Assembly (NCBI GenBank): GCA_021827485.1
Contig: JAKAVM010000106.1
Span: forward strand, 45,277-109,276
Direction: 5' to 3'
Origin: Actinomycetes bacterium
GTDB taxonomy: Bacteria > Actinomycetota > Acidimicrobiia > Acidimicrobiales > JAKAVM01
Length of the DNA: 64,000 nucleotides
The position numbers were made by a program, and so were the translations under genes. How positions within the stretch are numbered: position 1 is the stretch's first letter; every line of letters starts with the position of its first letter. Positions 9,527 to 29,852 of the stretch are shown in pieces. The notes below the pieces were generated by a model. The model had not been told where the DNA came from. It saw only the letters and a list, made by a program, of their open reading frames with translations, and ran no database searches.

Positions 9527-10846
9527 CTAGGTAGCCTCTCTTCTTTTTGCCAAACAACAGTTCTTGAATTTCAGGCCGCTTTCGCACGGACAAGGTGCAT
9601 TTCGATTAGCACTTTTCCAACGGGCCCGCTCATTGGCTTCAACTGCTCGCAGGTCAGCCATTAGTCTTGAGGGTTTCTGTCCGAGCAGGGAAAGTTCAAC
9701 CATTTTGTTCATATATGGCGAAATATGTTGATAAAAAGCTCGATATCCTGAACATAGATAATTCAGACCAGCTTCACCATCAATGGCGCTAGAGAAACGG
9801 TCTTTTGGACAGCCGCCGTTACACGCAAATAGTACTGGACATGCTTGGCAATAAGAGGTGAGCGAAGAAGTCTTTGCCTTCCCAAACTCTATTTGAACCC
9901 GAGAGTCGATCAAGTCAGCTAATGAATTCGAATCAATAGTGCCAAGGCGATGCTCCAAATCAACAAAATGATCACACGAGTATATGCTACCGTCATGTTC
10001 CATGGCTAGAACTTGTCCACAGTCTTGCGCCATAATACACAGATCTGCGGGACTGCCAGACCATACTCGCAAGCACTCCAGAAATAGTTGGATAGCAATA
10101 GAAGTCATGTCATAACGAACCCATTCGTCAAATATGGCAATTAGGAAATTAGCGTATGCATCTGGGGATACTGATTGCTTCGATACTCTATTATTGGCTA
10201 GTCGTACAACGATAGGTATGAATTGAAGCCAAGCAACCTCATTTCTGAGGAAGAACCGATAGGTTTCTTCAGGAAACTGGCTATTAAAAGAATTAATCGT
10301 GCAAAGTACGTCGGGATCAATCCCACTTTCTCGAAGGTTATTGTATCCCAGCATGACGCGAGCATGTGAAGGGCTTCCACCCTGCGAAACCCTATATTTA
10401 TCGTGAAGGCGGCTGGGGCCATCAATACTTATACCCACATGAAAATTATTTTCCGAGAGGAAGCGACACCAATACTTGTCCAGTAATACTCCGTTCGTCT
10501 GAAGATTATTTATACAATTGAAGCCAGGAGGAGAATACTTGCGTTGAAGTTCCAGCGCGCGCTCATAAAAGCCTATACCGGCCAGGGTTGGCTCCCCACC
10601 ATGCCAAACGAAATGGACAATCGGTCCGGGACTTGCCTGTATGAACTTTGCTATGTAAGCATCAAGCGCTCCGTTGCCCATTATGAACTCTTGATGATCT
10701 GGGAAGAGGGCTGTTTTACCGAGATAGTAGCAGTAACGACAGTGAAGATTGCAAGTCGGGCCTACCGGTTTGGCCATGACGATAAAAGGGTCTGTACGCG
10801 ACTTTCTACGGCTAAAGCCGGGGCCTTGCGCTCTCAGCTCGGTCAT
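9527..10846 (-). CDS. Radical SAM/SPASM enzyme of the anaerobic sulfatase-maturase (anSME) type with C-terminal SEC-C motif
   Basis: Radical-SAM cluster motif CNLHCRYCYY, followed by VWHGGEPTL and LQTNGVLL. Cys-rich SPASM region (CDHF.., CQACPVLFACNGGCPKDR). Terminal CPCESGLKFKNCC is SEC-C-like. The start overlaps the upstream stop (ATGA). Confidence 0.85.
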   Translation of the reverse strand: MTELRAQGPGFSRRKSRTDPFIVMAKPVGPTCNLHCRYCYYLGKTALFPDHQEFIMGNGALDAYIAKFIQASPGPIVHFVWHGGEPTLAGIGFYERALELQRKYSPPGFNCINNLQTNGVLLDKYWCRFLSENNFHVGISIDGPSRLHDKYRVSQGGSPSHARVMLGYNNLRESGIDPDVLCTINSFNSQFPEETYRFFLRNEVAWLQFIPIVVRLANNRVSKQSVSPDAYANFLIAIFDEWVRYDMTSIAIQLFLECLRVWSGSPADLCIMAQDCGQVLAMEHDGSIYSCDHFVDLEHRLGTIDSNSLADLIDSRVQIEFGKAKTSSLTSYCQACPVLFACNGGCPKDRFSSAIDGEAGLNYLCSGYRAFYQHISPYMNKMVELSLLGQKPSRLMADLRAVEANERARWKSANRNAPCPCESGLKFKNCCLAKRREAT

Positions 10847-12081
10847 TCGTCTACTAAATAGAGCATTCCATTGGGGTCCGAAGCAGCTAGCTTGCCAGTA
10901 GAATAAAGTCGCGCGAAACCATCGTAGGAAAGTTCATCACCGTGATAACCGAGCATCACAGATGGCGACCAAATACTTATCATTGCTGAGTCAATTAGCT
11001 CCCACAAAGTTGCAATTGGTGCTTTAGTGCGAGGGTCGGTAGGTATTATATGTACGTTTGGCAGCGGGAGGCCTACCGATTCCGCTAAGTACCAGCTCGG
11101 ATGCGAACCAATTATCGGCCCTGTTTCTGGCATTCCATAAAAGCTCAAAGTTGGGCATTGAAGGATCTTGGCAATGGATCGTATCGTGCCAGGCTCGAAT
11201 GAATCGCTTACATCGACAAGAACGCCGTTGAGGCCATATTGGTCACCTTTAGATCGTTTAGCAGAAAGATCAAACGTTGAAGCTGCATCACTAGTGTTGA
11301 TATATAACCATCCTGCATCCAACGTTCTAATTGAATCAAGAGAAACTTCACTAGGGGCAAGTGCAAACAAAGTTCGTCCAGAAAGTAGTGTTGCGCTAAG
11401 TACCATGAGACCTTGCCACGAGCTAGGAGAGAAGGTAGATATCACAGGTCTCATCTCGTTATCGGTAATGAAACTTGTCATGCTCAAGCAGTGACTAGTA
11501 AGACTTCGATTGGAATGCCAGGCGATCTTGCCGTCTTTGAAGATACCTACTTTCGGTACGCGGCTGGCGGCGGTCTTTGCACTAATCATCGCAGAGCTAA
11601 GCTGTTCGCAATTTTGTAGATCCACAAGGTCATCTAGGCTAATCAGCTCAATAGACGTACCCGATAAATATGTTGCCTGCGGATTGTCTACTAGAAGTAA
11701 GTCTACCTGAAAGTTTCCAAGTTGGCTTATAGCCTCTTGGGTAGAAGGAAATAATAGAAAAGGCCTTTGGGAAGCTAGCGCCCCAAGTACCGATAATATT
11801 GCCTTGTGATTGGAGTCCAGGCTTACTGCTAGGACACGTTCAGTTGGTACTCGATCATCTATTGCCTTGGCTATAGATGAAACTATTCTTTTGAGCGCAA
11901 GTGCGCTGATAGATTGGTGGCCATCTGAGATAGCCAGTGTATTGGGGTCTAGTCTTGCCCAACTATCTAGTATGAGCTCATGCAATGGGAATGGAGGGAT
12001 CCCAAAAGTTCGGGTAACCCCACGCGGCCAGTAATGAGATGGTGCAATTGCAATCGTCTTAGGCATACGGGACAACCACAA
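10843..12081 (-). CDS. ANL-superfamily (acyl/aryl-CoA ligase-like) N-terminal domain protein, degenerate motifs, no C-terminal subdomain
   Basis: Collinear with adenylate-forming enzymes. The P-loop position reads TAASRVPKVG where TSGTTGxPKG is expected. YGMPETGP stands for YGxTE. YSTGKLAASDPNGMLYLVDE stands for the TGD...G.l.i.GR segment. The protein ends there, so the about 110-aa C-terminal lobe is missing. Confidence 0.5.
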   Translation of the reverse strand: MWLSRMPKTIAIAPSHYWPRGVTRTFGIPPFPLHELILDSWARLDPNTLAISDGHQSISALALKRIVSSIAKAIDDRVPTERVLAVSLDSNHKAILSVLGALASQRPFLLFPSTQEAISQLGNFQVDLLLVDNPQATYLSGTSIELISLDDLVDLQNCEQLSSAMISAKTAASRVPKVGIFKDGKIAWHSNRSLTSHCLSMTSFITDNEMRPVISTFSPSSWQGLMVLSATLLSGRTLFALAPSEVSLDSIRTLDAGWLYINTSDAASTFDLSAKRSKGDQYGLNGVLVDVSDSFEPGTIRSIAKILQCPTLSFYGMPETGPIIGSHPSWYLAESVGLPLPNVHIIPTDPRTKAPIATLWELIDSAMISIWSPSVMLGYHGDELSYDGFARLYSTGKLAASDPNGMLYLVDE

Positions 12082-12577
12082 TCAACGTAATGAGTAACGC
12101 TGCAAATAGTTCGAAGCGAAGCATCCTATTCATCATTGCTATAAGAGATAATCGTTTTTTGCGAAATTGTAACCGCTCACTTTCGCTAGCTATAACAGGA
12201 AGTTTTGTATGCGACAAAGGGTGTATTAGAGTCCCCATGCCAAGAACGACGGCGACTAACAATACCCAACCTAAAGATAGGAAATATCTTTGCCAATTTT
12301 GCAATTGAGGATGATTTAAATTTGCAATAATCGGCACACTGGCAAATCGGCTAGAGAATTCACCGTGCGGGACCATTATGATCTGCGAGGCCGCGATCAG
12401 GATCAAAGCCGCTAGTGCCATCCATTTGTACTTCTTGCCCATCCTAAGGCAGAGAACTCCCGTCTGAGACGGTGGCACAATTTGCTGTACGGGTCTCCAA
12501 ACTAATTCCATGATGAGAGCCCCACCCAAGTATATGCTCCATGCAACTGTCATCAAAAAGTCTCCTATGATCTTCAT
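12059..12577 (-). CDS. 4-TM membrane protein, paralogue of the upstream gene, unknown function
   Basis: 172 aa. Shares IYLGGALIMELVWRPVQQIVPPSQ with the neighbour's IYLGGTIAMEFVLGPAQKYIPPAQ. Start overlaps the upstream stop by 4 nt. Confidence 0.5.
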   Translation of the reverse strand: MKIIGDFLMTVAWSIYLGGALIMELVWRPVQQIVPPSQTGVLCLRMGKKYKWMALAALILIAASQIIMVPHGEFSSRFASVPIIANLNHPQLQNWQRYFLSLGWVLLVAVVLGMGTLIHPLSHTKLPVIASESERLQFRKKRLSLIAMMNRMLRFELFAALLITLIVVVPYA

Positions 12578-13107
12578 AAAATTCCATTTCCATACGATAA
12601 TGAAGCTCCTAGTAGGACTATAAAAAGAGCGATAACTAAATCAGCACGGGTGATGCGCTCAATCCACTTTGCAGCCGAGACCATTTCCTCGATCTTTCCT
12701 GACATTGTGGATCCTGTAGTTCCAGCACTTGCTTTGCGTGTTAGTTTAGGGCGTAAGAAAAATGTGATTAGTGATCCATTGATGACTAGAACAACCCATA
12801 AGATCATCATTGTTACTAGAGTTTGACCATATGAGGAGCTAATAAAGTGTCCTTTTGCAACTAAGTGCTGGTCTCCTAGAGAGAAGAATAAGAGCATTCC
12901 ACTTATAGGAAAGAGTGCAAGAGAACCCCATACAAGGACCAGGAAACGATCCGCACTGCGCTGCGCAACAACCTGGGCTTGAGCTGGCGGAATATATTTC
13001 TGTGCGGGTCCTAAGACAAACTCCATAGCTATAGTCCCTCCAAGATATATAGCTACAGCTAGAAGATGTAAGTAAGATGCGATAATTTGCATTGCGGTGG
13101 ATGTCAC
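12574..13107 (-). CDS. 4-TM membrane protein, paralogue of the downstream gene, unknown function
   Basis: 177 aa and hydrophobic. GTG start shares 1 nt with the upstream TAG stop. Confidence 0.5.
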   Translation of the reverse strand: MTSTAMQIIASYLHLLAVAIYLGGTIAMEFVLGPAQKYIPPAQAQVVAQRSADRFLVLVWGSLALFPISGMLLFFSLGDQHLVAKGHFISSSYGQTLVTMMILWVVLVINGSLITFFLRPKLTRKASAGTTGSTMSGKIEEMVSAAKWIERITRADLVIALFIVLLGASLSYGNGIL

Positions 13108-14669
13108 TAATTATCTCCAATATCTGTCTGGGGAGTAGAAGATGGTGCTGATGGATCTTCTGTATTGGGATGCCATGTAGCAAAGTGTGAAGTGATGGCA
13201 GAAGGTAACCCGTAAGGGGTAGGATTACCGGTCTGGAACTTGTTGTAGAAGCTTTGATCAACATGATGGAGCTGCACTGAAAATTTAGCGCGTACCGGAT
13301 TCACAAAAGCTGGACAACATCCATACTTATCTACAATATACTCAACAGTTGCGACACAGGCCTCCTCCGCCCAGTCTGAAATATAGTAACGAGGGTGTTG
13401 AGTAATCTCTTGGCGGATATCGTCGTTATATGAACTAGCTGCGTCGAAAGATGTAGCGACGGACGATTGTGAAGATAGTGATGGGTAGCGGAGTTCTTTG
13501 ACAAATCTAACTGCACTCCTTGCGTCAGGAAATCGCGCAGATGGAACAACAACGGCATCTTTGATTCCAGGAAGTCCAAGACAAGTGAGAGTTTTTGAGG
13601 GATTGGTTGCATCATCTCGCTCAAGAAACGAGAAGCCTAACCCTTGACATATTTCTGGATATGCGCCCAAGACAAGATCATCAGCGTAGGATCCGATCGG
13701 CCATGCTCCGATTCCAAGTTGCTCTGCTGCAAGTCGCATGTTTTGCACCGAACATGCTGCTTGACTTGCCCCTAGTAGGAGAGCAAGTTCGTCAAATGCA
13801 GGTATAGGGAATCCAACCTCTAAGAATCCGGGACAAATCCATTCCTTGCATCCAGCTGGCTCGCCGGTTCCTGGGTCCATTAGATAAAAACCCGACCATT
13901 CATAAGACATCAACAGCTGATTGAACCATTCGAGACCGATATCGCACACCGGAAGCAACCACGTACTTGCCGGTCTATTGATATTGTATTGGCCAGGTCC
14001 CATTGGATTGACGTTTTGAGTGGCCTCAGGTGCTGAAAACCAAGCTACATCAGGTCGGCTAGAAGATAGTATCGTGCGATTATTTCTATACCACGCCAGG
14101 ACTTTTCCGTAGTCATCGGCCCCTGCTATTTCAATTGGGGCATGATCTTGGGAAATTGGTCGGTATAGCGATACTCCTGCATCATTTATGATAAATAAAT
14201 CGACCGAAAGATCATTAGAAGATGCGGGAATAGTTCTGCCTTGTGACGATATAATACCCGATAGGCCGCCATTTATCGGAATATCAGCCATTATGGTTCC
14301 GTTTAAACCAACTCCAGCCCAAGCCACAAGAGCTTCTTCGATTTCGGAAAGAGGTATTGGATCTTTATCTAAACGGTGGGAGAGCGGCCCCTTGGCTTGA
14401 CGATGGGTACGTTGGGAGGACCAAGTAAAGGTCTCCTCTTCTCCCGTCTCAATTGAATATCCTAATCCAACTCGTCGCGTTCGAAGAGTTGATAGAAGTT
14501 TGAAAACCGAGGTTGGTGATTCAAAAGCTTCGCTGATTTGGGACTGCTCTTGCGCAGTGAGTTGAATGGGCGCCGATTGTGGTGAAGAGTCCTTTGAGGG
14601 TGTAGCTGTAGCTGAAGCTGTAGCTGGAGGATTATCCTGGTCGGTTGATTGTTTTCTTGAGAAGATCAT
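13107..14669 (-). CDS. Nitroreductase-superfamily-like (SagB/ThcOx-like) protein with low-complexity N-terminus
   Basis: 520 aa. Segments resemble the nitroreductase fold: LLSTLRTRRVG (compare LLxxRRSxR), PLSEIEEALVAWAGVG, GRTIPASSNDLSVDLFII and QNMRLAAEQLGIGAWPIGSY. The family call rests on motif memory only. The CDS itself is solid, with a 4-nt overlap to alpha2. Confidence 0.45.
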   Translation of the reverse strand: MIFSRKQSTDQDNPPATASATATPSKDSSPQSAPIQLTAQEQSQISEAFESPTSVFKLLSTLRTRRVGLGYSIETGEEETFTWSSQRTHRQAKGPLSHRLDKDPIPLSEIEEALVAWAGVGLNGTIMADIPINGGLSGIISSQGRTIPASSNDLSVDLFIINDAGVSLYRPISQDHAPIEIAGADDYGKVLAWYRNNRTILSSSRPDVAWFSAPEATQNVNPMGPGQYNINRPASTWLLPVCDIGLEWFNQLLMSYEWSGFYLMDPGTGEPAGCKEWICPGFLEVGFPIPAFDELALLLGASQAACSVQNMRLAAEQLGIGAWPIGSYADDLVLGAYPEICQGLGFSFLERDDATNPSKTLTCLGLPGIKDAVVVPSARFPDARSAVRFVKELRYPSLSSQSSVATSFDAASSYNDDIRQEITQHPRYYISDWAEEACVATVEYIVDKYGCCPAFVNPVRAKFSVQLHHVDQSFYNKFQTGNPTPYGLPSAITSHFATWHPNTEDPSAPSSTPQTDIGDN

Positions 14670-17416
14670 TCTTCATCTCCTATTTTGGTTAGGTTCACAT
14701 AAACAGCCCGGTCGGCCGGAACAGGTTGCCAGCCAAAAGGGATATATCGTAAGTGTCCGTATTTTCCGACCAGATGTAGCCATTTCACCATGCCGGGTTC
14801 TACCTCATTTGAGCCTTTCCACTGTGAAAACATGTGTGGCTCAAATCCGTTATAGACGACAATTTGACCCGGTCGAATCCGTGGTGTGATTCGAACCATT
14901 GCACTAAAGTCACCATGGTCGTTACTGACTCTGACAAACTCGCCATCTTCGATGGAGATAGTGGCTGCATCTAGAGTGTTTAGGATAACCAGTGGTCTCC
15001 CGCGGTGTGTTCCTAATAGAGCGGAATTACCCATGTTGATAGAATGTACTGTCCAGCGAGAGTGACCACTGGTCAAGACATATTGACCATCTCCACCTTG
15101 TCGAGGAGGTTCTTTGTGGCGCGGAAGGTGCTCATCTGCCTCTAGAAACCAAGGATGGTCTATATAAAACTGAGCACGACGCACGAGAGTTGGAAACGGA
15201 AGACCTTTTTCAGTATGCCAAGAGAAAGCAGTCATGACTTTGTCCGGCAATACGTCGGAGGCAACAGATAATCCCGGAGAGAAAACTCCTAAGTCGGTAA
15301 AGCGGATACTTCCCTTGTCTCGAAGCGAGGTTATCGAGCTATCACGAGGAAGGGTACCCGCCATTGCTGAGTCACGTACCCACTCATCGAGGACATCTTC
15401 GTCAGATGCGAAAGCTCCTTGTAATACAAAATCTTTGCCGAGTGTGTCAAGATTGCGGGTAACTCTTCTTGAATCTACGTAGTTGTGCATACCTCGAGAT
15501 AGCGCTTTTTCTGATATATGATTCGCTAGCTCGCTGAAAATTTCCCACTCACTCCTAACGTTTTCAGGGGGAGGGACGGATTTGTCAGAGAAGGAAAGCC
15601 GGAGCATGTGAGTAATCGGATATTGTAGGTTCACTCGTTCATAGGCCATTGCGGCAGGCAGGATTAGATCAGCATGAAGAGCTGTAGTAGACATCCGGAA
15701 GTCAACCACGATTATTTTTTCGAGTTCATCCCATAAGTCGGACAACATTCTATTTCGTCCTCCTCGAGTCCTTCGCAAGGGGTTAGTGCCGACACAGAAT
15801 AGGACTTTTGGAGTGGTTGATGCACTTGGTCTGTTTACTCCTCCCCACCATCCTTTCCGGGTTGCTTCTGTTAGGTAAGACTCGAAATCTTTAGTCATGG
15901 ATTTATCAGACCAATCGGGATTGTTCCATGATTGTTCGTATCCACAGTGGTAGTAGTTAAAAAATATTGGGGGTGCGCTGGTGCCAGAAGCCGCAGCGAG
16001 GTGGATAAGTTGACTTCCTGCTATCTCGTCAGTCATAGATGGATCGGATGAACGAATCTCCTCTACGGCTCGATCAATTCCATCGAGAATTCGGGCAGTT
16101 TCCTCAACCCCTTTGGCTGACTTCATGGAAAATAGCAAGTACCCATCCAGCCCAGCTAAGGCAAGACCTTGAATACCTGTCCCGGGTTTACCCCAATTGC
16201 CAGTTAAGGCGGCAAGTAAGCACATCGAGCGCTCCATTAGGTCGCCGTGGAAATACTTTGGTCCGTTGAAACCTTCGAGGATTTTTGTCGGTTTAGTCGC
16301 AACAAGATGCGCAAGATGCCGAATCATTTGAGGACTAACTCCACAAATAGGGCTAGCCAGTTCGGGGGTATAGCCTTCCAGGCGCTCCTGGAGAAGTGTA
16401 AATACTGTTGTCACTTGCGTACTTATCCCACTGGCAAGTGTAACGGTCCAAGTCCCGACTAATTCAGGCGAAATGTCCCCCAACACAAGGCTATCTCGTC
16501 GAGCTTGGGAGAGCCCGAGTGACTTATCCCAGTGGTAGAACTGGTCATCACTTCCATCGACGGACATATCACTTGATCTAAGAAATCGCCGACTCTCTTT
16601 GACGACTAAGAGAGGTAAGTCTGACTGTGAACAAACAAAATCTTCATCCATCATTTGTTCTTCAATAATTACTTGACACATCGAAAGTGCGAGAGCCGCA
16701 TCACTACCAGGTGTGATTGGAACAAAGTAGTCAGAGTGGATTGCTGAAGCATTATAGTCAGGTGCAATCGCAATTACAGTAGCTCCCCGATATCTATTCT
16801 CGGAAATAAAGTGATGATAAGGGATAGATGTATAAGCAGGATTCGAATGCCATTGTAGAATTAGCTGTGATTTGAAAGTATCATCTACCGTGCTAGCGCA
16901 TGAGAACTTTCCAAAAGTTATGTGTTGGCCCGTCGGCAAATCGTTGACTAATCCATTTGCATCGAGCGTTACCGCACCCAATAGGCCTGCCAATCTCAAG
17001 AAAGACGCTTGGCTCATCAGTCCCCCCTCAACACTCTCTTCAAAGATCACTGAGTCTGAACCTTCTTCAACTATAGCGTCCAAGATCGAATCTGCTATTT
17101 CATCTAAAGCCTCTTGCCACGAGATCTCTTCCCACTGGCCAGACCCGCGTTCTCCTACTCTGCGAAGAGGGTGTAGGATACGATCTGGTGACGTGAGCTG
17201 GCGACTCCAAGCGCTCCCTTTTTGGCAGCCCAGCGGATTGAGGTCAGGTACTTGGCTTTCGATTGATTCAATATGACCACCCTGCTCTTCAAAAAGGACT
17301 TTACCGTCTCTAACATAAACTTTATAGGGACAAGCAGCTAAGCAATTAACACAGTGAGTTCCCCAGGCGGTCTTATCCCATGTCCAACGTGCTCGATAAG
17401 TCTCGGCAGTCCGCAC
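14666..17416 (-). CDS. Type-II DMSO-reductase-family Mo-bisPGD catalytic subunit, paralogue 2 (alpha2), no signal peptide
   Basis: 916 aa. RARWTWDKTAWGTHCVNCLAACPYKVYV plus NPLGCQKG form the FS0 His/Cys motif. NDLPTGQHITFG sits at the NarG Asp-ligand segment. Alignable along its length with alpha1. GTG start inside the last unit of a 16-bp repeat. Confidence 0.85.
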   Translation of the reverse strand: MRTAETYRARWTWDKTAWGTHCVNCLAACPYKVYVRDGKVLFEEQGGHIESIESQVPDLNPLGCQKGSAWSRQLTSPDRILHPLRRVGERGSGQWEEISWQEALDEIADSILDAIVEEGSDSVIFEESVEGGLMSQASFLRLAGLLGAVTLDANGLVNDLPTGQHITFGKFSCASTVDDTFKSQLILQWHSNPAYTSIPYHHFISENRYRGATVIAIAPDYNASAIHSDYFVPITPGSDAALALSMCQVIIEEQMMDEDFVCSQSDLPLLVVKESRRFLRSSDMSVDGSDDQFYHWDKSLGLSQARRDSLVLGDISPELVGTWTVTLASGISTQVTTVFTLLQERLEGYTPELASPICGVSPQMIRHLAHLVATKPTKILEGFNGPKYFHGDLMERSMCLLAALTGNWGKPGTGIQGLALAGLDGYLLFSMKSAKGVEETARILDGIDRAVEEIRSSDPSMTDEIAGSQLIHLAAASGTSAPPIFFNYYHCGYEQSWNNPDWSDKSMTKDFESYLTEATRKGWWGGVNRPSASTTPKVLFCVGTNPLRRTRGGRNRMLSDLWDELEKIIVVDFRMSTTALHADLILPAAMAYERVNLQYPITHMLRLSFSDKSVPPPENVRSEWEIFSELANHISEKALSRGMHNYVDSRRVTRNLDTLGKDFVLQGAFASDEDVLDEWVRDSAMAGTLPRDSSITSLRDKGSIRFTDLGVFSPGLSVASDVLPDKVMTAFSWHTEKGLPFPTLVRRAQFYIDHPWFLEADEHLPRHKEPPRQGGDGQYVLTSGHSRWTVHSINMGNSALLGTHRGRPLVILNTLDAATISIEDGEFVRVSNDHGDFSAMVRITPRIRPGQIVVYNGFEPHMFSQWKGSNEVEPGMVKWLHLVGKYGHLRYIPFGWQPVPADRAVYVNLTKIGDEE

Positions 17417-17485
17417 CTTAGCTTGACACCACCTTAGATTGATACCACCTTAGATTGATACCACCTTAGCTTGACTGCACCTTAG
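17414..17485. repeat. Tandem 16-bp repeat x4.5 (minus strand CTAAGGTG + 8 nt) filling the delta/alpha2 intergenic gap
   Basis: CACCTTAG recurs at 17414, 17430, 17446, 17462 and 17478. The first minus-strand unit carries the TAA stop of the chaperone gene. The last carries the GTG start of alpha2. Confidence 0.95.
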
Positions 17486-18174
17486 TTCGACTGAGGCGAT
17501 GGTGCCAGGATAGTGTCGAGGTAGATAATATCCTTGGCGACAAAGACTTCAAGGTAACGAAGACCCCACGCAATTGCCGGGATCAGAGTCGTGGGGTTTG
17601 AACGTGCGACGAGCCCTGTTACGAGACCTTCAAGGAAGCGAGAAAGAAAATCTGCCTGCGCCCTACGATAAGAAGAGCGAAGGCGGTCAGAGCTTGTGGC
17701 CGCTTCCTTAAAGCACAGAAATCCCATGAACTCAAGCTCAGTGGATAAGTGGTCTGCCCTATGAGCATCTGAGGCGCCTGTAGCCAGACCGAAATACTCA
17801 TACTCACGCTGCACATCATGAATAGTTTGTGCATTATCGCCACTATAAAAACTAGATTCGAGGGGAGATCCATTTTCATCAGATCCCTGGAACGCTAAAG
17901 ACCACTGAGACTCAAATTCTTGGCTATCAAGGCCAGAAAGATCAATCGGAAGGTCGACATCTAATTTATATGGCAGCAGCTCAGATGCACTTTCAAGCTC
18001 TTTGACCCAGATCCCATCGCGACTTTTTGCAAAATGACTAGAGTCAGCGCCACTAAACCATTTTGCAAAAAGTTGATATAACGCACTGCGAGAAGTTGTT
18101 TCATTTTCTTCAACTTCTTGCAGGGTTTCTCCTGCAGCTTTGATTTCTAAACCTGATAGTGAATATGTGAACAT
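17482..18174 (-). CDS. TorD/NarJ/DmsD-family redox-enzyme maturation chaperone (delta)
   Basis: 230 aa, acidic and helical. Sits after the beta subunit as in narGHJ and ebdABCD. SALYQLFAKWF and HLSTELEFMGFL resemble the TorD-family core. The call rests on position plus weak motif resemblance. Confidence 0.7.
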   Translation of the reverse strand: MFTYSLSGLEIKAAGETLQEVEENETTSRSALYQLFAKWFSGADSSHFAKSRDGIWVKELESASELLPYKLDVDLPIDLSGLDSQEFESQWSLAFQGSDENGSPLESSFYSGDNAQTIHDVQREYEYFGLATGASDAHRADHLSTELEFMGFLCFKEAATSSDRLRSSYRRAQADFLSRFLEGLVTGLVARSNPTTLIPAIAWGLRYLEVFVAKDIIYLDTILAPSPQSN

Positions 18175-18191: not shown

Positions 18192-19334
18192 CTAAGACCG
18201 ATTTGCAGTTCGTCTTGAAGTATCGATGCTTACTGCTACAGTTTCAGGTCTGCGATCGAGTGAAGCTGGGTCAGTTGTGTACGGCCCAAAAAGCTCATTC
18301 CAGTGGTAAACAATTAGAGTATCCAAGATTTCTGAGCTGCCTCCAGAGCGCACAGTATCAAGTTCGCTGCGAAGCTTATCCATAACCGCATGAACCTTCG
18401 GGCCAAAAAGACTTTCCAGATATTCAGGGGGAATTCGAGGAGTCTCATAGTCTATTGACATGTCATCGTTGAGGCGATATGGAGACAAAGGCGGGATATA
18501 AAAGATATTCGGCCCAGTTCCATATTCGGGGTGGAGCGGAAGAGCAATCTCCCATTCATGTACCAACTTGTGGATTGGACCATTCTTATCGTTTGCCATT
18601 CCGACAAAAACAAGTCGACCTGGGCACTGACGGGCGCACGCTGGTGCTACGCCAACTTCGAGCCTTGGGAAGCATAGAATGCAGTGCTGGGCTACATTGC
18701 GAGCGTAATTGAAGTAGATCTTCTTGTAAGGACAGGCCTCCATGCAAAAGCGCGAACCTTGACAGATCTCTTCATCGCGCAAAACAGCTCCATCTTCAGA
18801 TCTTTTGTACATTGCCCCGGATGGACATGCAGTTATGCAAACTGGGTAGGTGCAATGGTTACAAAGTCTCGGGAGATAAAAATAGTACGCGTTAGGATAT
18901 TCACCAGCACCTTGATCTTCGTCCCAGTTCATTCCCCATTTCGTAGTACCGTCGCCCTTGTCTTTAGGTGCTAAATGGACCGATCGACCTTTGCCTCCAT
19001 AGAATACTTCGTCATAATTAAACTCCCATCCGCCACCAAACTCCTCTCTTGTGGGTTGGTGCCCTGGATTTGGCTGGTTCTGATTCCACCCACCCCCCAT
19101 TTGCTCCCAAGCCTTCGGCGTGCCCTGGCCTGGCTGCGTGTTCACCGTCATCCACCACTGATGCTCTTCGCCCTCTTCCCTAGTCCACAGTACCTTGCAA
19201 GCAATGGAGCAGGTTTGGCAACCCATACATTTATTCAAGTCGAAAACCATCGACACCTGATGATCGGTTGCCAAAGATTCTCTGGTAACTTCCGAGTTAG
19301 CAGTTGCGTTATTTCCCTCTAGGCGATCTGTCAT
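18192..19334 (-). CDS. Type-II DMSO-reductase-family iron-sulfur beta subunit (NarH/EbdB-like)
   Basis: VSMVFDLNKCMGCQTCSIACKVLWT, CNHCTYPVCITACP, CQGSRFCMEACPY (NarH CxGWRxC-type group) and CILCFPRLEVGVAPACARQCP. Confidence 0.9.
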   Translation of the reverse strand: MTDRLEGNNATANSEVTRESLATDHQVSMVFDLNKCMGCQTCSIACKVLWTREEGEEHQWWMTVNTQPGQGTPKAWEQMGGGWNQNQPNPGHQPTREEFGGGWEFNYDEVFYGGKGRSVHLAPKDKGDGTTKWGMNWDEDQGAGEYPNAYYFYLPRLCNHCTYPVCITACPSGAMYKRSEDGAVLRDEEICQGSRFCMEACPYKKIYFNYARNVAQHCILCFPRLEVGVAPACARQCPGRLVFVGMANDKNGPIHKLVHEWEIALPLHPEYGTGPNIFYIPPLSPYRLNDDMSIDYETPRIPPEYLESLFGPKVHAVMDKLRSELDTVRSGGSSEILDTLIVYHWNELFGPYTTDPASLDRRPETVAVSIDTSRRTANRS

Positions 19335-19341: not shown

Positions 19342-20046
19342 TTACAACCTTCCTGTTTGCTCTAAGCCGATCCACTGTGGACTTACTGATCCAATGCCTG
19401 CTCGCTCTTGGTTAGATCCATCCCAAATGGCGATCCCCATTTTCTCGATATTGTTAGCGCCTTCATACTCACCGGAAATTACGACCGTCCAATGATTGTC
19501 ACTCTTGAGAGCCTGGACACTGAGAGAGGCGGTTGTCGCAACGTCCTTATTGGACCTGACTGATTCGTTTAGATTGGGTCTAAAGACACCAGGGCCACTT
19601 GCATAAAGCTCTTTGATAGGTGGCAGATCACGCTGGATAGGAAGTTGATCGCGCCAGTACCATAGACGAACGGGTGCTTGGTGAGTACCTATTGTCAATG
19701 GCGCTGCTCCAGGCTGGTCTCCCTGGCCATTGGCTACAAAGTCAAGGGGGAAAAAAATAGCTGCCGCATCAGTGAACTCACCATCAAAGCCATCCTCTTT
19801 TTCGCTTGCGTTCCCATCAACCTTGTCCCATTCAAGACGAGCAAGTATCTTATTTCCACTGCGTGCAAGTGATAGTTGAGCAGATCGGGTCAATCCATAT
19901 TCGCGATCTGCCCATTTGGTTCTAATGTATGCATTGGGCTGGGAAGTTATCGGTATCGGGACTAGGGCGACTTGCTCTGTATCGATTCCGGACCAATCCA
20001 ATTCCAATAAATTGTTTGTACTTCCTTTTATTTCTGACACATTCAT
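19342..20046 (-). CDS. EB_dh/DOMON-like gamma-type subunit, no signal peptide
   Basis: 234 aa. LARLEWDK...FTDAAAIFFP...VRLWYWR...WTVVISGEY...MGIAIWDGSNQERAG..SPQW follows the ethylbenzene-dehydrogenase gamma (heme-b subunit) pattern. The N-terminus MNVSEIKGSTNN is not a signal peptide. Confidence 0.6.
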   Translation of the reverse strand: MNVSEIKGSTNNLLELDWSGIDTEQVALVPIPITSQPNAYIRTKWADREYGLTRSAQLSLARSGNKILARLEWDKVDGNASEKEDGFDGEFTDAAAIFFPLDFVANGQGDQPGAAPLTIGTHQAPVRLWYWRDQLPIQRDLPPIKELYASGPGVFRPNLNESVRSNKDVATTASLSVQALKSDNHWTVVISGEYEGANNIEKMGIAIWDGSNQERAGIGSVSPQWIGLEQTGRL

Positions 20047-20050: not shown

Positions 20051-22948
20051 TCAATGCCTTCCTAACTCCGAATTAGCTTTTGCAAAATCACAAGGTACTC
20101 CTCGATCAACCGGTATTGGTTGCCACTCAGCCATTGTGTAGTTGATGTGACCATACCCTCCAGCAAATGCGATCCACTTGACCATGCCTGCCTCAATTTC
20201 ATTAGCACCACTCCACTGATCGTACTGATGCCCATCCCAGCCGTTATATGAAATAATCTGACCAGGGCGAACCCCAGGGGATACTTTTGCTCGAGCGGTA
20301 AATGAAGATATATCGTTCCATACTCTTATGAGGTCGTTATCTTCTACTGAGCGCTGTTTCGCATCGATAGGGGATACTTCTATGTTTGGTTCACCGCGAT
20401 GAGTTTGAAGAATGATCGGATTCAACTGATTCATCGAATGAATACTCCACCTGTTATGTCCTGAGGTCATACGAAGTGGGTGATTTCCGCCAGAGAGTGG
20501 ATTGGGCTTGTGACAGGGAAGCTCTTCGTGGGCTTCAATCCACCAGGGGTGATCAATATAAAACTGCGCACGTCGAGCGTATGTCGGGAATGGAGCCCCT
20601 TTTTCTAGATGATCTCGAAAAGGCGTATGTGTCTTGTGGGTTTCAAACGGTGACGCCTGGGCCAAGGCAAACGGACTACCGCCCCATCCAATAAAGCGTT
20701 CATGGCCGACTTCACGCATCCTTGCAAGGTCAGTACGTTCTGGAAGTGTACCAGCGTAAGCCGAATCACGAATTATCTCATCAAAAAGCTTTTCCTCACT
20801 TTCGATGTAACCGTTCAATGTAAATGAATTCCACATCTCGTTCGGAATAAAAGATGCTCCAAATCTATTGGTGTACTCAGTAATTCCTCTAGCTTGTGCT
20901 CGCTCGGCAAATCTTTTCAGTATGATTTGGTAAATTTCCCACTCAGGTTTTGCTTCTCCAGCTGGATCGGCATTTCTGTCTGAAAAGGTTAGATTCATCA
21001 CATGAGAAGTCGGTATGTGTAGGTTAACCTTCTCATAATGCTGGGCAGCTGGCAGAACTATGTCAGAGTTGAGGCCAGTAAAATTGAGTCGGAAGTCGAT
21101 AGATACTATTAGGTCAAGCCTGTCCCATAGATTTTCACCTAACTGGGTCCAACCTCCCCTTGTGCGACGGAGCATGTTACCCCCGCACTCAATCAACATT
21201 TTAGGAGGCTCGTCTGGCCGTGGATGATCTAGACCTTGCCACCAACCGTTGGCTATTGCTTCCTCGAAGTATTCGTTGAATTTACGCGGTAGGGATTCGT
21301 CCCCCCACTCGGCCTTTTCCCAACGCTCCTTGAAGCCTCCTTGCCAGTACCACCAAAAGGCTGGAGGAGAACCAGTTTGCCTAGTCCCGGGAAAGATTCC
21401 CTGACTCTTGGCGATCATGCGCGATAACTCTCTCACAGCAAGCTCATCGGTGGTGATACTGGGATCTGCTTTGCGAAGAGCTTCTGTTGCAGCTTGTTGG
21501 GTGGAGAATAGCTGTTCTGCACCTTCAACACCGGGGACGGTTTTGACCATAATCGTAAACATGCCATCTGCCATACCAATCATCCATGATCGGATCCCCG
21601 TGCCAGCCTTGCCCCAATTGCCAGTAACAGCAAGTAGAAGGCACATAGATCTTTCCATAAGGTCACCGTGGTAGTACTTGCAGGAATTCCATCCCAACAT
21701 TATGTCTGTGCGTTTCGAAGCAGCTTTACGCGCCAACGTTCGCACAACATCAGGGTGGATTCCAGTAATACTTTGTGCCTTTTCGGGTGTATAGTTCGCG
21801 TTTACGTGGTTTTTCAGCAGCTCCATGACTGGTGAAACCTGAACCTGCGTCCCATCACCGAGTGTAACTTGGTAGGTTCCTTCCAGGGCAACACTTCTTC
21901 CGTTCAATAGCAAGTTCCCCCTATTTGCTTCTACTAGACCGCTTTGAAGATCCCAGTGATATAGCTGGTCCTCTCTGGCCTTTGAGGTGGTCGCGCCCTC
22001 TTGGCTAGGTGCGTTCTCATCTGTTGACTCAAGGTCGCATTGACGCAAGAAGCGCTTATTGTCGAGTCGGACCAAGCACGGTAGATCAGTTTGCTCTGAG
22101 ATAAATGTTGTATCGGCGATCTCTTCTTCGAGAATTACTTGAACCATTGCTAGAGCAAGTGCTGCATCGGCTCCCGGAACAATTGGAACATGATAGTCGG
22201 CGTGCATATGTGATGCATTTAGGTCAGGAGAAATCGAAACGACTTCTGCTCCCTTATATCGTGCTTCGAGCATGAAATGATAGAACGGAATGCGAGTGAA
22301 AGCGGGATTCATGTGCCAAATCATTATGATCGGAAAGTGGAACCAGTCATCAGCTGATGAAGCAGGATTCCACTTTCCAAAAGTCTCATGGAGTCCAATC
22401 GAAAAATCGTTAAACGATGGGTGTAGGTCGAGAGTTCGTCCTCCAATTACATTGAAGAAACGGTCTGTTGGCATAACCGCGGCAACCTCAGGTGTTCCCT
22501 CGCGCACTATTGACTCAGGGCCAGCTTTTTCAATAGCATCCAACATGCCATCAGCAATCTCGTCAAGGGCTTGATCCCAAGATATCTGTTCCCATTTACC
22601 CTCCCCACGTTCACCAACTCGCTTGAGTGGATGTAAGACTCTATCGGCCTGATAAAGTTGCTGACTCCAAGAGGCACCCTTGTTACATCCCATAGGGTTG
22701 AAGTCAGGAACCCCATCTTCAACTACGGAAAATGTTGCCGCAGCCTCTTCGCGAACTACTTTGCCATCTGTGACATAGACTCTGAAAGGACAGTTGCCGG
22801 GATAGCAATCGACGCAATGAGTGCCCCAACCGACTTTATCCCAAGCCCAACGTGATCGTAAGTTTGCCTCGCTTGCTTCATGTGGCGAAAACGCAACCGT
22901 TTCGCTTGGTGCTTTGCTTTCCACGGAACTACTTTTTGCAAGAGTCAC
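20051..22948 (-). CDS. Type-II DMSO-reductase-family Mo-bisPGD catalytic subunit, paralogue 1 (alpha1), no Tat signal
   Basis: 965 aa. RSRWAWDKVGWGTHCVDCYPGNCPFRVYV plus NPMGCNKG form the FS0 motif. NDFSIGLHETFG sits at the Asp-ligand segment. The GTG start is preceded by AAGGAGG (plus-strand 22959-22965). No RR motif in the N-terminus. Confidence 0.9.
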   Translation of the reverse strand: MTLAKSSSVESKAPSETVAFSPHEASEANLRSRWAWDKVGWGTHCVDCYPGNCPFRVYVTDGKVVREEAAATFSVVEDGVPDFNPMGCNKGASWSQQLYQADRVLHPLKRVGERGEGKWEQISWDQALDEIADGMLDAIEKAGPESIVREGTPEVAAVMPTDRFFNVIGGRTLDLHPSFNDFSIGLHETFGKWNPASSADDWFHFPIIMIWHMNPAFTRIPFYHFMLEARYKGAEVVSISPDLNASHMHADYHVPIVPGADAALALAMVQVILEEEIADTTFISEQTDLPCLVRLDNKRFLRQCDLESTDENAPSQEGATTSKAREDQLYHWDLQSGLVEANRGNLLLNGRSVALEGTYQVTLGDGTQVQVSPVMELLKNHVNANYTPEKAQSITGIHPDVVRTLARKAASKRTDIMLGWNSCKYYHGDLMERSMCLLLAVTGNWGKAGTGIRSWMIGMADGMFTIMVKTVPGVEGAEQLFSTQQAATEALRKADPSITTDELAVRELSRMIAKSQGIFPGTRQTGSPPAFWWYWQGGFKERWEKAEWGDESLPRKFNEYFEEAIANGWWQGLDHPRPDEPPKMLIECGGNMLRRTRGGWTQLGENLWDRLDLIVSIDFRLNFTGLNSDIVLPAAQHYEKVNLHIPTSHVMNLTFSDRNADPAGEAKPEWEIYQIILKRFAERAQARGITEYTNRFGASFIPNEMWNSFTLNGYIESEEKLFDEIIRDSAYAGTLPERTDLARMREVGHERFIGWGGSPFALAQASPFETHKTHTPFRDHLEKGAPFPTYARRAQFYIDHPWWIEAHEELPCHKPNPLSGGNHPLRMTSGHNRWSIHSMNQLNPIILQTHRGEPNIEVSPIDAKQRSVEDNDLIRVWNDISSFTARAKVSPGVRPGQIISYNGWDGHQYDQWSGANEIEAGMVKWIAFAGGYGHINYTMAEWQPIPVDRGVPCDFAKANSELGRH

Positions 22949-23216: not shown

Positions 23217-23849
23217 GTGGTTATGAGCAATTTGCTAGCTTCCGATCAGGTGCCAGTAACTGGACGTTTACAAAAAGCCACGGATTTCTTTCGTTGCTTC
23301 CCCGCAAGGCGTCGAGTCGGATTAGGAATGGGCCAAGTATTCATTGACTTTATGGAGTGGGAGATCTCTAGCGGACGCTTGTCTGACAGTATGGGATCGC
23401 CATGGTGGATGGCCGTTAATTGGATGATGATTGTTGATCTATCAAATACAATGAGACAATCGCCAGAAGCGGAAAAATTCAGATACACAATAGGACAAGA
23501 TAACATTAGAAACTCGCCATGGGATATATATCTTCAGTCTGATATAGCCAATGAAAAGGAACTGTTCTGGCGAGCGCATCAAAACTCTTTATCAAGAGCG
23601 GTCGAGCTGGCAAGCCCACTATTGGAAAGCGAAGTTGTAACTGAGCAAAGGTTTATCCAATTGAGTCTGGAAATAGTTGATTTTGTTGCAAGCTCCAAGG
23701 ATCTTGGAGACGCTGCAACACTCAAACAGTCACTAGACAAATTCTACCCGTCTAGCTATCCCATTACTCTCGACGATCTTGAAAGTCTTGAGTGTAGTCT
23801 AATACTTCTTGCGGGGGAAGAGAATACCAACCAAGCGATACTAAGATAA
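23217..23849 (+). CDS. Hypothetical protein
   Basis: 210-aa ORF with protein-like composition and no motif recognised. Its 3' end overlaps the ctaA 3' end by 86 nt (convergent), so its extent is uncertain. Confidence 0.4.
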   Translation: MVMSNLLASDQVPVTGRLQKATDFFRCFPARRRVGLGMGQVFIDFMEWEISSGRLSDSMGSPWWMAVNWMMIVDLSNTMRQSPEAEKFRYTIGQDNIRNSPWDIYLQSDIANEKELFWRAHQNSLSRAVELASPLLESEVVTEQRFIQLSLEIVDFVASSKDLGDAATLKQSLDKFYPSSYPITLDDLESLECSLILLAGEENTNQAILR

Positions 23850-24878: not shown

Positions 24879-26615
24879 GTGTCAGATGAGCGCTTTGATG
24901 TGGTAGTAATTGGAGGAGGCCACAATGGCTCCACAATCGCTGCCTATTTGGCCAAGTCCGGTTTATCAACCTGTGTGTTGGAGAGCCGCCCTGAGTGTGG
25001 TGGGGGCCAAGAGAATACAGAGGTCCGACCGGGATTTCGGATTGACCCCCATGCAACCTACCTATATGGAGGTGCAGCTCCGGGCTTTGACCAGCTAGAG
25101 CTTTGGAAATACGGGATGCGCATGGTTTATTACGCATCTATGGCTGGAGTTGCGACCTTGGACGGTCAAGCCGCCAATCTAGGTGGACGGTGGCGGCCCG
25201 ATCTCGGGGATGCAGCGATCAAACGCTATTCGCCAAATGACCTGGAAGGCCCCGGTAGGATTTTTGACCAGTTAGGTGAAGGCCCATCGAGAGAGTTGCT
25301 CCGTGCACTGTTTTGGACCCCTCCTTTCCCTGAAGGTGCTGAGATAGATCCTAGAGACATGCCGTGGTGGAAGGTATTTCGTCAATATCTTCCAAATCTA
25401 TTTTTTGATGAACTTGTCGATATGAGTTACGTGGATTTCCTGGACAACTTTGTGCAGTGGGATCCACTGAAGGTGGTCGGCGCATTTGGCGCTTGGTATT
25501 GCGGTGCTCACCCGGATTGGGAAGGAATGTTACTTCAATCGCTTGGTGGAACACTTCTTTATTCCTATGCTTCGGGGGCCCCGCGCGGAGGTATGCACAC
25601 TTATGCGCATGCAATAATCCGATGTGCAATCGCCAATGGTGCCAGAGTAATGACAAATGCCCCAGTTGGAGAGATAATCGTCAATAACGGTCGGGCGGTT
25701 GGAGTTCGGCTCTCGGATGAGGCAGCATTCCCTGAGAAGACGATATGGGCGGATAAAGCAGTTATATCGGGAGTAGATGTAAAGCAAACCTTCCTCAAAC
25801 TTGTCGGTAAAGGACATCTAGACCCCTCTTTCACCCAGAGGGTAGATGACATATCGCTTAAAGGTGGAAGTTTATTTGTTATGTCGGTTATATGTCGGGA
25901 GTTGCCACGATATCACAATAAGGAGGAATACTTTCCTCAAGACGTTTATCCTTCATGTGTTATTGCTCCAGCGGACTCTTTTGAGTATTTTCGAACTCAA
26001 ACTCGCGATGCATATTCATACAAGAAGCCCCCAGAACTAACACCTGAACATCTCACTATGATGATATGCACGCACGATCCCTATGATTCGACGCGTTGCC
26101 CTGACGGATATCACGTACTGTCCCCAATATACTTGGAGGTGCCACCTCCACAATATGATGTAACAGGTGCGCAAGGCATCAACAGACACAAAGAAGAGAT
26201 AACTAAAGCGGCACTTGGAGTACTGCGTCAGTTGGCGCCGAATATGACGGAAGGAAATATAGTGGATGTATTCGTCAATACTCCATATGATTCGGAGTTC
26301 CGAAATGCTGGAATGGTCGGGGGCAACTGGTATGGAATTCGCCAGTCCGAGGACCAGTGGTTCTCAAACCGTCCACTCCCAGAGCTTTCGCGATATCGGA
26401 CGCCAATTGAAGGGCTGTATCTGTGCAACCAGACATCTCATCCTGGTGGTCTGTGTCTAATGGCGGTTCCATACAACCTCATGCACATTCTTATTGACGA
26501 TGGAATAGCTAACCCGGGGAGTTGGTGGTATCCGTCGCCCCACTACATGAAAGATCTAAAGCCAACTGCAAGTATATCCAGGAAAACAGCCTTGGAAACG
26601 GATGTCGTCAAATGA
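24879..26615 (+). CDS. FAD-dependent oxidoreductase, phytoene-desaturase (CrtI)-like, paralogue P1
   Basis: [38 protein letters not shown] (dinucleotide fold plus GG). C-terminal [18 protein letters not shown]. Confidence 0.85.
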
Positions 26616-28315
26616 GCGCAAGTAAAGCTGGTCTAGAAGGTGTGCAACCACTTAGGCGCAAGGAAGAGTTCAAAGTCGAACCATTAGAACATATTCTTGA
26701 TGAATTCCCGATCAAGTCCAAGTATGATGTAGTGATTATCGGGGCAGGACCTAATGGGTTGATGGCCGCAGCCTACTTGGCTAAATCAGGATTGAAAACA
26801 ATTGTCTTGGAACGCCGTCAGGAGATTGGTGGAGGACTAGCCACAGAAGAGACCCTTTTCCCTGGGTACTATACGAATCCTCATGCCTTTTATCACATGA
26901 TGACTGACTATATGCCGATAATGTCTGATTTCAACCTGCAAGACCATGGGCTCTATTTTGTAAAGCCCAATACTCAAACCTCTGCAATTTTCTCGGATAA
27001 CTCCACTTTGACCTTGTACAACCAGCATGAAGATACCAAAGATTCGATTGCTAAATTCTCTGCTAATGATGCTAGAAGATTTGGGAAAGTCATGCGATCT
27101 TGGCGCAAAATTGTGTCAGAAATCATAGCGCCCGGCACTTATGTTCCTGCTATGTCGCCAATCGACATGATTGAGCGTTTCGAACAAACCGAAATGGGTA
27201 GGGAAGTACTTAGGCTATCGGAGATGTCACCACTAGAGATAGTGGAAGAGAACTTTGAAGATGACAGAGTTCGCGCGCTGATGCTTTATGTATCTTGCAT
27301 GTGGGGACTTGACCCAAACGAAAGTGGTTTAGGTTTTATGGTACCACTTATGATAGATCGAGCAATGAACAAGGCCCAGTGCTATGGAGGTTCACACAAA
27401 CTTGCAGGTTCGCTCTCGCGTGAAATCTTGAAAGCTGGCGGTACGGTTCTTGACAATGCTCAAGTACAGAGAATTATTGTTGATAATGGCCAGGCAAAAG
27501 GAGTGGAACTTTACGATGGAAGAGTAATCGAGGCAAATGTAGTACTTTCTAGTTTGCCACCACCGATTACTTTTGGGAGTTTGATCGATCAGACTATGGT
27601 GCCCCAAGAGATGGCAGAGGCCGCCAACCTCTGGGAGTGGGATAAGTGGTCTTTTTTCACCATGTCAATGGCTACCGAGAAAGCTCCCTACTACCAGTGT
27701 GATGATCCATCGGTAAACGATGCACTGATGGTGATTATGGGCTTTGACACTTGCCAGGCGGTCCGAGAGCATTTTGCTGCGGCAATTGCTGGAGAGATTC
27801 CACGAAATATTGGAGGACATGCAAGCGTGGAGACTCGTTATGATCCAACCCTTCCTCGGATACCGGGCCATCACGTCAGCTTTTTCCAGATCCATGCTCC
27901 ATACGACGTGCCAGGGGGATGGGACGAACAAGGACCAATTCTAGCCAACGAACTTAGCGCATTGTGGAAGCGTTCCTGCCCTAATTTAGTGGACGAGAAT
28001 ATCGTTATGCGCTCTATTGAAACTCCAGTTGATATTGAGACTCGTTTGACGTCAATGGTTAGAGGATCAATCAAACACGGCGATTACCATCCCTTGCAGA
28101 TGGGAGTATTCCGCCCGCACGATTCTTGTGTGGCAGGTAGATCTCCTATTGAAGGCTTATACCTTTGTGGCGCGTCTTCTTACCCCGGGGGTTTAGTGAT
28201 TGGTGGACCTGGTTACATAGCAGCCGGATCGGTTGTAGAGGATCTTGATGTTGCTAAGTGGTGGAGCCCACCGCAATACGTTCAACGATATTCGGCACAA
28301 TATATGAGTTCTTAG
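26612..28315 (+). CDS. FAD-dependent oxidoreductase, CrtI-like, paralogue P2
   Basis: The ATG at 26612 overlaps the P1 stop (ATGA). [39 protein letters not shown]-terminal [18 protein letters not shown]. The ORF is open from 26522, but that portion lies inside P1. Confidence 0.85.
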
Positions 28316-28318
28316 ACT

Positions 28319-29752: not shown

Positions 29753-29852
29753 CAACCTTTAGTTTTTATCAGGAACCTGGGGCCCTGTCGACAGATGCGG
29801 GCCCTACATGGCAAGGCAAGATGCGAATCTTCCTATTAGAAAAGGGGGAAGT

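Follow-up and report, generated by a model that had tools for sequence, protein, structure and literature searches.

The stretch of DNA analysed here (hereafter the window; 64,000 nucleotides of contig JAKAVM010000106.1 from an Actinomycetes bacterium of the order Acidimicrobiales) carries an operon for a molybdoenzyme of the ethylbenzene dehydrogenase (EBDH) type, whose gamma subunit is the subject of this work. This subunit (19342..20046, minus strand) is a 234-residue protein of the EB_dh/DOMON fold that lacks the Met and Lys heme ligands of its relatives, and it is probably a heme-free component of a cytoplasmic enzyme. Its N-terminus reads MNVSEIKGSTNN; Met is found at positions 1 and 203 only (the latter within NNIEKMGIAIWDG), His only at 122 (GTHQAP) and 185 (SDNHWT), and Cys not at all. 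The open reading frame (ORF) is maximal and its ATG lies 4 nt downstream of the stop codon of alpha1, the preceding gene, so that there is no room for a leader and a longer ORF hiding one can be ruled out. A Shine–Dalgarno-like GGAAGG is situated within the 3′ end of alpha1, ahead of the gamma ATG, and gamma is translationally coupled to alpha1. A preliminary description of this DNA had recognized an EB_dh/DOMON gamma subunit with no hydrophobic leader and a sole internal Met near the C-terminus; each of these features stands, to which we add the minus-strand orientation that it left unstated.

Curated family models recover the protein below their cut-offs: 30.5 bits against Pfam PF09459 (EB_dh, cut-off 33.3), 70.7 bits for a full-length match to TIGR03477 ("DMSO reductase type II heme b subunit"; DMSO, dimethyl sulfoxide; cut-off 169.85), and 40.4 bits against NF042980 (the EbdC model, cut-off 400). 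A phmmer search of the PDB matches gamma to two relevant solved structures only, EbdC (2ivf_C, E = 2e-6, full length) and NxrC (7b04_C, E = 4e-6). The AlphaFold2 model, derived from 110 homologues, has a predicted local distance difference test (pLDDT) score of 85 and a predicted template modelling (TM) score of 0.86, with low confidence confined to lineage-specific insertions; Foldseek places it closest to 2ivf_C (E = 9e-14, TM 0.71/0.77), followed by 7b04_C (E = 2e-10) and then by heme-free CBM9 modules. On the modelled fold, gamma is best described as a divergent but genuine EB_dh-fold subunit, homologous to the family despite scoring under the curated cut-offs. Three insertions (residues 79–89, 101–112, and 159–172, modelled at pLDDT <60) are present in the lineage of the window and missing from most other members that lack the ligands. 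The identical gamma protein was found on 21 contigs.

The partner subunits flank gamma on the same strand. Alpha1 (20051..22948, minus strand, 965 residues) is the catalytic subunit, of the molybdenum bis-molybdopterin guanine dinucleotide (Mo-bisMGD) type; beyond gamma lie the four-cluster Fe–S subunit beta (18192..19334, minus strand, 380 residues), delta (17482..18174, minus strand, 230 residues), an assembly chaperone of the NarJ/EbdD type identified by profile matches, and alpha2 (14666..17416, minus strand, 916 residues), a second EbdA-like catalytic subunit whose stop overlaps the start of the next gene by 4 nt. EbdA is the best PDB match for alpha1 (665 bits) and matches alpha2 with 700 bits, followed by PcrA (about 440) and NarG (about 200). 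Both alphas keep the H-x3-C (His/Cys) ligands of cluster FS0, the Mo-ligand Asp (EbdA Asp223), and the equivalent of EbdA Lys450; where EbdA has His192, alpha1 has Pro and alpha2 has Ser. We take His192 and Lys450 of EbdA to be important active-site residues of EBDH. Beta matches EbdB with 419 bits and conserves 15/15 of its Cys residues, leaving all four Cys groups intact. Judged by ligand conservation, the electron wire from Mo through FS0 to FS1–4 is predicted to be complete.

The heme-ligand columns of gamma and its relatives

The gamma subunit of EBDH binds one heme b, with a potential of +256 mV, through a Met and a Lys (PMC8840923), and the heme ligands of NxrC are Met155 and Lys305, "as in EBDH" (PMC8387239). 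We read the corresponding columns of the window protein by counting along HMMER pairwise alignments to EbdC and NxrC. The column of EbdC Met108 (VTMGATGRPVNAWYWK) and NxrC Met155 (PRMGDRQKPVNLWHWK) is occupied by Ile119 in gamma (PLTIGTHQAPVRLWYWR; codon at 19690..19692, minus strand; PMC8387239 for the NxrC ligand), and that of EbdC Lys201 (ERSGRKSYS) and NxrC Lys305 (RNGQKNIS) by Gly219 (ERAGIGSVS; codon at 19390..19392, minus strand; PMC8387239). The motifs that flank both columns are kept (G120, P125, W129, and W131 around the first; W208, G210, N212, E214, R215, and G217 around the second), and the register is therefore secure. The preliminary description had supposed the canonical Met to be missing; this is borne out, and the Lys is gone as well, such that the two columns hold Ile and Gly rather than the Met/Lys pair that would have spoken against its view.

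The same state recurs across a large group of operons. A pattern-based search across 185,579 species genomes yielded 80 loci, about 40 of which possess an operon of the window type (alpha1-gamma-beta-delta, often continued by alpha2, a 520-residue protein, a CopD-like protein, and a second membrane protein). These ligand-less loci derive from metagenome-assembled genomes (MAGs) of Acidimicrobiia/Actinomycetes (including Microthrixaceae and Aquihabitans) and of Chloroflexota (Dehalococcoidia, Anaerolineae, Tepidiformaceae, and Thermoflexaceae), with a few otherwise-labelled MAGs. Their Lys column is Gly or Ala in 40/40 cases; their Met column is mainly Ile or Leu, seldom Phe, and Met in nine. 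The remaining loci retain Met/Lys and come chiefly from Alphaproteobacteria, with the gene order gamma-beta-alpha-delta, plus some Dehalococcoidia. Metagenome proteins split likewise (85 Met/Lys versus about 44 ligand-less), as do representatives clustered at 50% identity: 1587 match gamma at E ≤ 1e-3, and among some 130 aligned top matches 105 are Met/Lys and about 15 ligand-less. The alpha-gamma-beta-delta order, remarked upon in the preliminary description, is real and conserved, being found in 33 of the 35 ligand-less loci with enough upstream sequence, and the set of type II alpha, four-cluster beta, and NarJ-like chaperone is kept in 33–39 of 40.

Comparison of 82 ligand-less with 123 Met/Lys gamma sequences in a pooled alignment indicates that more than the two ligands has changed. 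Positions conserved in Met/Lys gammas are gone from the ligand-less ones, namely His62 (97% in Met/Lys), Arg192 (99%; Gly in 82% of ligand-less sequences), and Arg132 (80%). The loop at residues 193–207 (19426..19470, minus strand), flanked by this Arg192-to-Gly position, is ~10 residues shorter in all ligand-less than in Met/Lys gammas; measured between 192 and 208, it spans 12–16 residues (median 14) versus 21–34 (median 24), the ranges being disjoint. Ligand-less gammas have in turn acquired invariants of their own (Glu90, Pro152, and a G-P-G-V-F motif at 151–155 that includes Val154 and Phe155), with Thr118, Arg42, and Glu72 also highly conserved. Among the 82 ligand-less gammas, the conservation of every His, Met, Cys, and Lys position stays below 60%. 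Tyr40 (100%) and Tyr50 (99%) are near-universal in them and are the majority residues in Met/Lys gammas too. His122 and His185, which the preliminary description had put forward as candidate ligands, occupy columns that are not conserved, and both were rejected. Its broader alternative, a gamma either heme-free or ligating heme in another manner, can thus be narrowed: the absence of ligands is conserved across the clade, so that the heme-free option is the better supported and alternative ligation the poorer.

In a neighbour-joining tree of beta subunits (Kimura distances, rooted within the Met/Lys group), all ligand-less loci stand apart from all Met/Lys loci with 100/100 bootstrap support. 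The window falls among MAGs labelled Actinomycetes/Acidimicrobiales, both by this tree and by identities of 80–85%. The sisters of the ligand-less clan are L043_13081 (Met/Lys) and L055_7959 (Met/His), both from Chloroflexota and both adjoining alphas without a twin-arginine translocation (Tat) motif. Ligand loss is, on this phylogeny, the trait of one well-supported clade and would have a single origin. Other ligand pairs appear elsewhere in the family (Met/His, Asp/His, Leu/Arg, Lys/Lys, Met/Met, and Trp/Arg, at L055:7959-8576 and in proteins P0112, P0248, P0144, P0146, P0150, P0156, and P0207), each read from one automated alignment; some of these, for example Met/His, could be functional alternative heme ligations.

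Export signals and cellular location

The preliminary description had emphasized that gamma lacks an export signal. The leader is indeed absent, although as evidence of location this carries no weight: EbdC is itself without a leader (214 residues in both the PDB chain and the NCBIfam model, with a hydrophilic N-terminus that aligns with gamma from residues 1–4), and close Met/Lys gammas mostly begin about 20 residues ahead of the conserved Trp, the distant ones possessing hydrophobic leaders of 50–60 residues. We therefore dropped the missing leader as proof of a cytoplasmic site. Export in this branch must accordingly depend on alpha, and it is the Tat signal of that subunit which decides the matter; the periplasmic hydroxylases of the EBDH type (EbdABC, steroid C25 dehydrogenase, and p-cymene dehydrogenase) carry one on alpha. 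A related arrangement is visible in the sister group L044–L080 (Anderseniella/Hyphomicrobiales MAGs), in which the order is gamma-beta-alpha-delta, the alphas carry Tat motifs, and the Met/Lys gammas are leaderless; heme would therefore be inserted in the cytoplasm, with gamma hitch-hiking through export.

Neither alpha1 nor alpha2 contains a Tat motif (each ORF is maximal, and its N-terminus is hydrophilic and free of RR), and none was found in ~60 alpha ORFs of ligand-less loci, as against a Tat motif in every alpha of the Alphaproteobacterial Met/Lys loci. No Tat or Sec signal was seen in gamma, beta, delta, or the 520-residue protein. Since neither alpha has a Tat signal, the alpha-beta-gamma complex is predicted to be cytoplasmic. 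A few Chloroflexota loci (L040, L041, L043, and L055) pair Tat-less alphas with Met/Lys or Met/His gammas, and L043 already displays the alpha-gamma-beta-delta order; the existence of such pairings suggests a sequence of events in which export was lost first and heme second.

The linked downstream module and wider neighbourhood

Downstream of delta, the genes for alpha2, the 520-residue protein, two membrane proteins, an AMP-binding-domain (AMP, adenosine monophosphate) protein, and a radical S-adenosylmethionine (SAM)/SPASM protein follow one another with frames that overlap or abut. The second alpha, the Tat-less state of both alphas, and this linked module went unmentioned in the preliminary description. 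The 520-residue protein (13107..14669, minus strand) is highly conserved, belongs to no Pfam family, and is provisionally assigned to the nitroreductase superfamily by profile and model. It scores 16.3 bits against PF00881 (cut-off 23.5); its PDB profile matches are weak, yet 10/10 are nitroreductases and all align over the same helix. Foldseek comparison of its model (pLDDT 81) returns 3hj9, 3hoi, and 8cqs (E = 4e-5 to 7e-4, target TM 0.43–0.59), followed by the flavin mononucleotide (FMN) oxidases ThcOx, McbC, and BmdC. The family comprises 136 matches, of which the 120 listed are ≥49% identical and nearly all unnamed or "hypothetical"; mean column identity is about 60%, and an N-terminal LSTLRTRRxGLGY motif and the HH at 468–469 are invariant or nearly so. 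From the modelled fold, the protein is probably an FMN flavoprotein and possibly a tandem of the fold in the manner of ThcOx.

The two membrane proteins that follow are CopD-like paralogues: one of 177 residues (12574..13107, minus strand) with a conserved His14 in its first hydrophobic segment, and one of 172 residues (12059..12577, minus strand) with a conserved His118-Pro. At the position of the His in the first hydrophobic segment, the 172-residue protein has Trp. The pair may constitute a membrane anchor/heme site or a metal-handling pair. The 520-residue gene occurs in 22/40 ligand-less and 0/38 Met/Lys loci, and the CopD-like genes show the same distribution (22/40 versus 0/38), as scored in the DNA fetched for each locus. 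Further on, the AMP-binding-domain protein (10843..12081, minus strand, 412 residues; its frame overlaps both neighbours) comes after these two membrane proteins in 8 further loci. The radical-SAM/SPASM protein (9527..10846, minus strand, 439 residues, with a C-terminal SEC-C motif for zinc) is encoded by the last overlapping gene, present in only 2 other loci, and its gene shares 4 nt with that of the AMP-binding-domain protein. The presence of a SPASM maturase in the operon may point to a cofactor derived from a peptide or to some post-translational modification.

On the other side of the operon, a 210-residue ORF with no Pfam match (23217–23849, plus strand) runs divergently from alpha1. 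In 14 further loci a homologue adjoins the operon, in most of them on the other strand, and the ORF probably belongs to the system as a candidate regulator or assembly factor. Beyond it lies a catabolic island (24879–37933) encoding four CrtI/amine-oxidase-like flavin adenine dinucleotide (FAD) enzymes, a MerR regulator, an aldehyde dehydrogenase, two acyl-coenzyme A (CoA) dehydrogenases, and an enoyl-CoA hydratase; a CoA-ligase-like protein, CtaA, and CtaG are also in the neighbourhood. The Tat-less Dehalococcoidia loci L040, L041, L043, and L048, which have Met/Lys gammas, are likewise flanked by pairs of similar FAD enzymes. This gene content suggests an aerobe that catabolizes an aliphatic or isoprenoid-type compound, and suggests that the putative activity of the enzyme is the oxygen-independent hydroxylation of such a substrate. 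An Rfam scan of the 64-kb window found nothing beyond one tRNA (40020–40091, minus strand).

A probably heme-less gamma: competing readings and known systems

We consider it probable that gamma belongs to a cytoplasmic EBDH-type (DMSO-reductase type II) molybdoenzyme in which the heme b site has been lost, gamma serving as a heme-free structural or adaptor subunit and the exit of electrons being re-routed. An exported ancestor would have turned cytoplasmic, leaving its high-potential Met/Lys heme without a periplasmic cytochrome c partner, and the heme would have been lost because the cytoplasm offers no such partner. Gamma is present, full-length, and at the same position in 40/40 ligand-less loci across two phyla, many of its invariant residues are common to heme-type gammas, and about 20 invariants remain in the clade; for these reasons we regard it as still under selection. 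Purifying selection may have retained it as a structural cap or docking adaptor at the FS4 end of beta. Both alpha paralogues probably share the one gamma, in the manner of the steroid C25 dehydrogenases, several alphas for each beta-gamma set having a precedent in Sterolibacterium (PMC6153880). Electrons would then enter or leave FS4 directly via another partner, the leading candidates being the translationally coupled nitroreductase-fold protein (probably FMN-binding) and/or the two CopD-like proteins, for which a NarI-like role is possible. A more specific version of this scheme is tentative and, in our estimate, rather doubtful. It envisages rewiring instead of mere decay, with a heme-less gamma docking FS4 to a recruited tandem nitroreductase-fold flavoprotein and CopD-like heterodimer. 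In aerobic Acidimicrobiia and Chloroflexota, O2-independent C–H hydroxylation would in this way be linked to the quinone pool or, by way of a flavin, to O2.

Several observations weigh against a heme-free, re-routed enzyme. The module is missing from the fetched DNA of 18/40 ligand-less loci, some of which are truncated contigs and others of which have room for it, and the tie between gamma and the module is one of gene neighbourhood. Proteins of the CopD family are annotated as handling copper and not as transferring electrons. Motif and hydropathy, rather than a dedicated predictor, were the basis for scoring Tat signals as absent, and the proposed heme-binding role of His62, Arg132, and Arg192 derives from their conservation. 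Lastly, the first ligand column retains Met (the position of Ile119) in 13/82 ligand-less sequences, where a five-coordinate or unusual heme is possible, and the clade-invariant Tyr40 and Tyr50 are possible ligands. Gamma might in that event still bind heme b through non-canonical ligands (Tyr40/Tyr50, the retained Met, or a residue of beta) and act as the terminal redox center; the organism makes heme, CtaA and CtaG being encoded nearby, and ligand variants such as Met/His occur elsewhere in the family. We nevertheless think this distinctly unlikely. The clade offers no His, Met, Cys, or Lys above the 60% level, His122 and His185 vary, and the two Tyr residues, as the majority state in Met/Lys gammas too, do not constitute a replacement; moreover, His62, Arg132, and Arg192 are gone and the loop is shorter by 10 residues, a combination that points to a heme site that has been dismantled.

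A somewhat less improbable alternative, though still an unlikely one, is that the former heme pocket has been re-purposed to hold another ligand, for example a quinone, a flavin, or a hydrophobic molecule that the enzyme consumes or produces; gamma would then work as a carrier or channel or would provide a new cofactor site. Modules that bind ligands without heme are known in the DOMON/CBM9 superfamily, CBM9 being the next Foldseek match after the two EB_dh structures, and the clade-specific invariants Glu90, Thr118, Pro152, Val154, Phe155, Arg42, and Glu72 suggest a new constraint over decay; these same residues could, however, simply fill the cavity or form a protein–protein interface. The opposite view, that the working enzyme consists of alpha and beta only, with gamma either a relic in decay that has lost its function or an artefact of annotation, strikes us as very improbable indeed. 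In its favor, gamma is far more diverged than its partners (32–42% identity to relatives versus 59–80% for alpha and 65–85% for beta), and PcrAB was crystallized without a gamma subunit (PMC8840923). The gamma/beta identity ratio also falls below that of the heme-type clades (0.64–0.69 in ligand-less versus 0.75–0.89 in Met/Lys clades at 70–90% beta identity), a modest difference that is gone at greater divergence and that suggests a mild relaxation of constraint, in modest support of the heme-free adaptor too. A remnant would not be expected, though, to persist as an intact, full-length gene at one position in 40 loci of two phyla, to keep ~20 invariant residues and gain clade-specific ones, to fold confidently when modelled, to recur as an identical protein on 21 contigs, and to remain coupled to alpha1.

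The heme-free adaptor reading would set this clade apart from all described relatives. In the enzymes with EB_dh-type gammas (ethylbenzene, steroid C25, and dimethylsulfide dehydrogenases, selenate and chlorate reductases, and nitrite oxidoreductase (NXR) of the anammox/Nitrospira type), the wire ends in a Met/Lys heme b, and these enzymes are described as periplasmic, or anammoxosomal for NXR (PMC8840923, PMC6153880, PMC8387239). Full-text literature searches turned up no account of this operon or of any EB_dh gamma that is cytoplasmic or heme-less, key subscription papers lying outside their coverage such that an earlier mention is possible. A cytoplasmic clade with a dismantled heme site would mean that the electron wire can end differently, by a route not yet described for the family, and the loci would form a natural series for respiratory re-plumbing, running from exported Met/Lys heme, through Tat-less Met/Lys heme, to the Tat-less heme-less state with a new partner module. 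The clade occurs in aerobic lineages that are abundant and for the most part uncultured (Acidimicrobiia, Microthrixaceae, Anaerolineae, Dehalococcoidia, and Tepidiformaceae) and sits beside genes of the beta-oxidation type; it may represent a so far unrecognized way to hydroxylate recalcitrant aliphatic or isoprenoid compounds without oxygen. The automatic "heme b subunit" label carried by ligand-less gammas (Joint Genome Institute (JGI) names) is probably wrong.

Among solved structures, EbdC of Aromatoleum aromaticum (2IVF chain C) resembles gamma in fold, in its full-length match, in being leaderless, and in its company of EbdA-, EbdB-, and EbdD-like partners. It differs in its Met108/Lys201 heme b (+256 mV) and in its periplasmic site with cytochrome c (PMC8840923), where the window has Ile/Gly, a deleted loop, and Tat-less alphas, and in a gene order of alpha-beta-gamma-delta as opposed to alpha-gamma-beta-delta. 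NxrC of Kuenenia stuttgartiensis (7B04 chain C) shares the fold and the conserved motifs around both ligand columns, but is larger and anammoxosomal and binds heme b through Met155/Lys305 (PMC8387239). The heme-free DOMON/CBM9 modules share the superfamily fold and show that it can exist without heme, although they are extracellular carbohydrate-binding modules of unrelated context with a TM score of just 0.44. The steroid C25 dehydrogenases of Sterolibacterium denitrificans provide a parallel as EBDH-like hydroxylases whose alpha paralogues outnumber the beta-gamma sets (PMC6153880) and whose catabolic context is side-chain oxidation; unlike the window enzyme they are periplasmic, with heme b in gamma and cytochrome c as the presumed acceptor. 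NarGHJI, in turn, is like the window enzyme in facing the cytoplasm without functional Tat export and in its Asp Mo ligand, His-ligated FS0, four-cluster beta, and NarJ-type chaperone (PMC8840923). Its third subunit is the unrelated membrane di-heme protein NarI, and the window alphas score 665–700 bits to EbdA versus about 200 to NarG; as an analogy, NarGHJI is nonetheless useful for how an exported ancestor may have become cytoplasmic and changed its third subunit.

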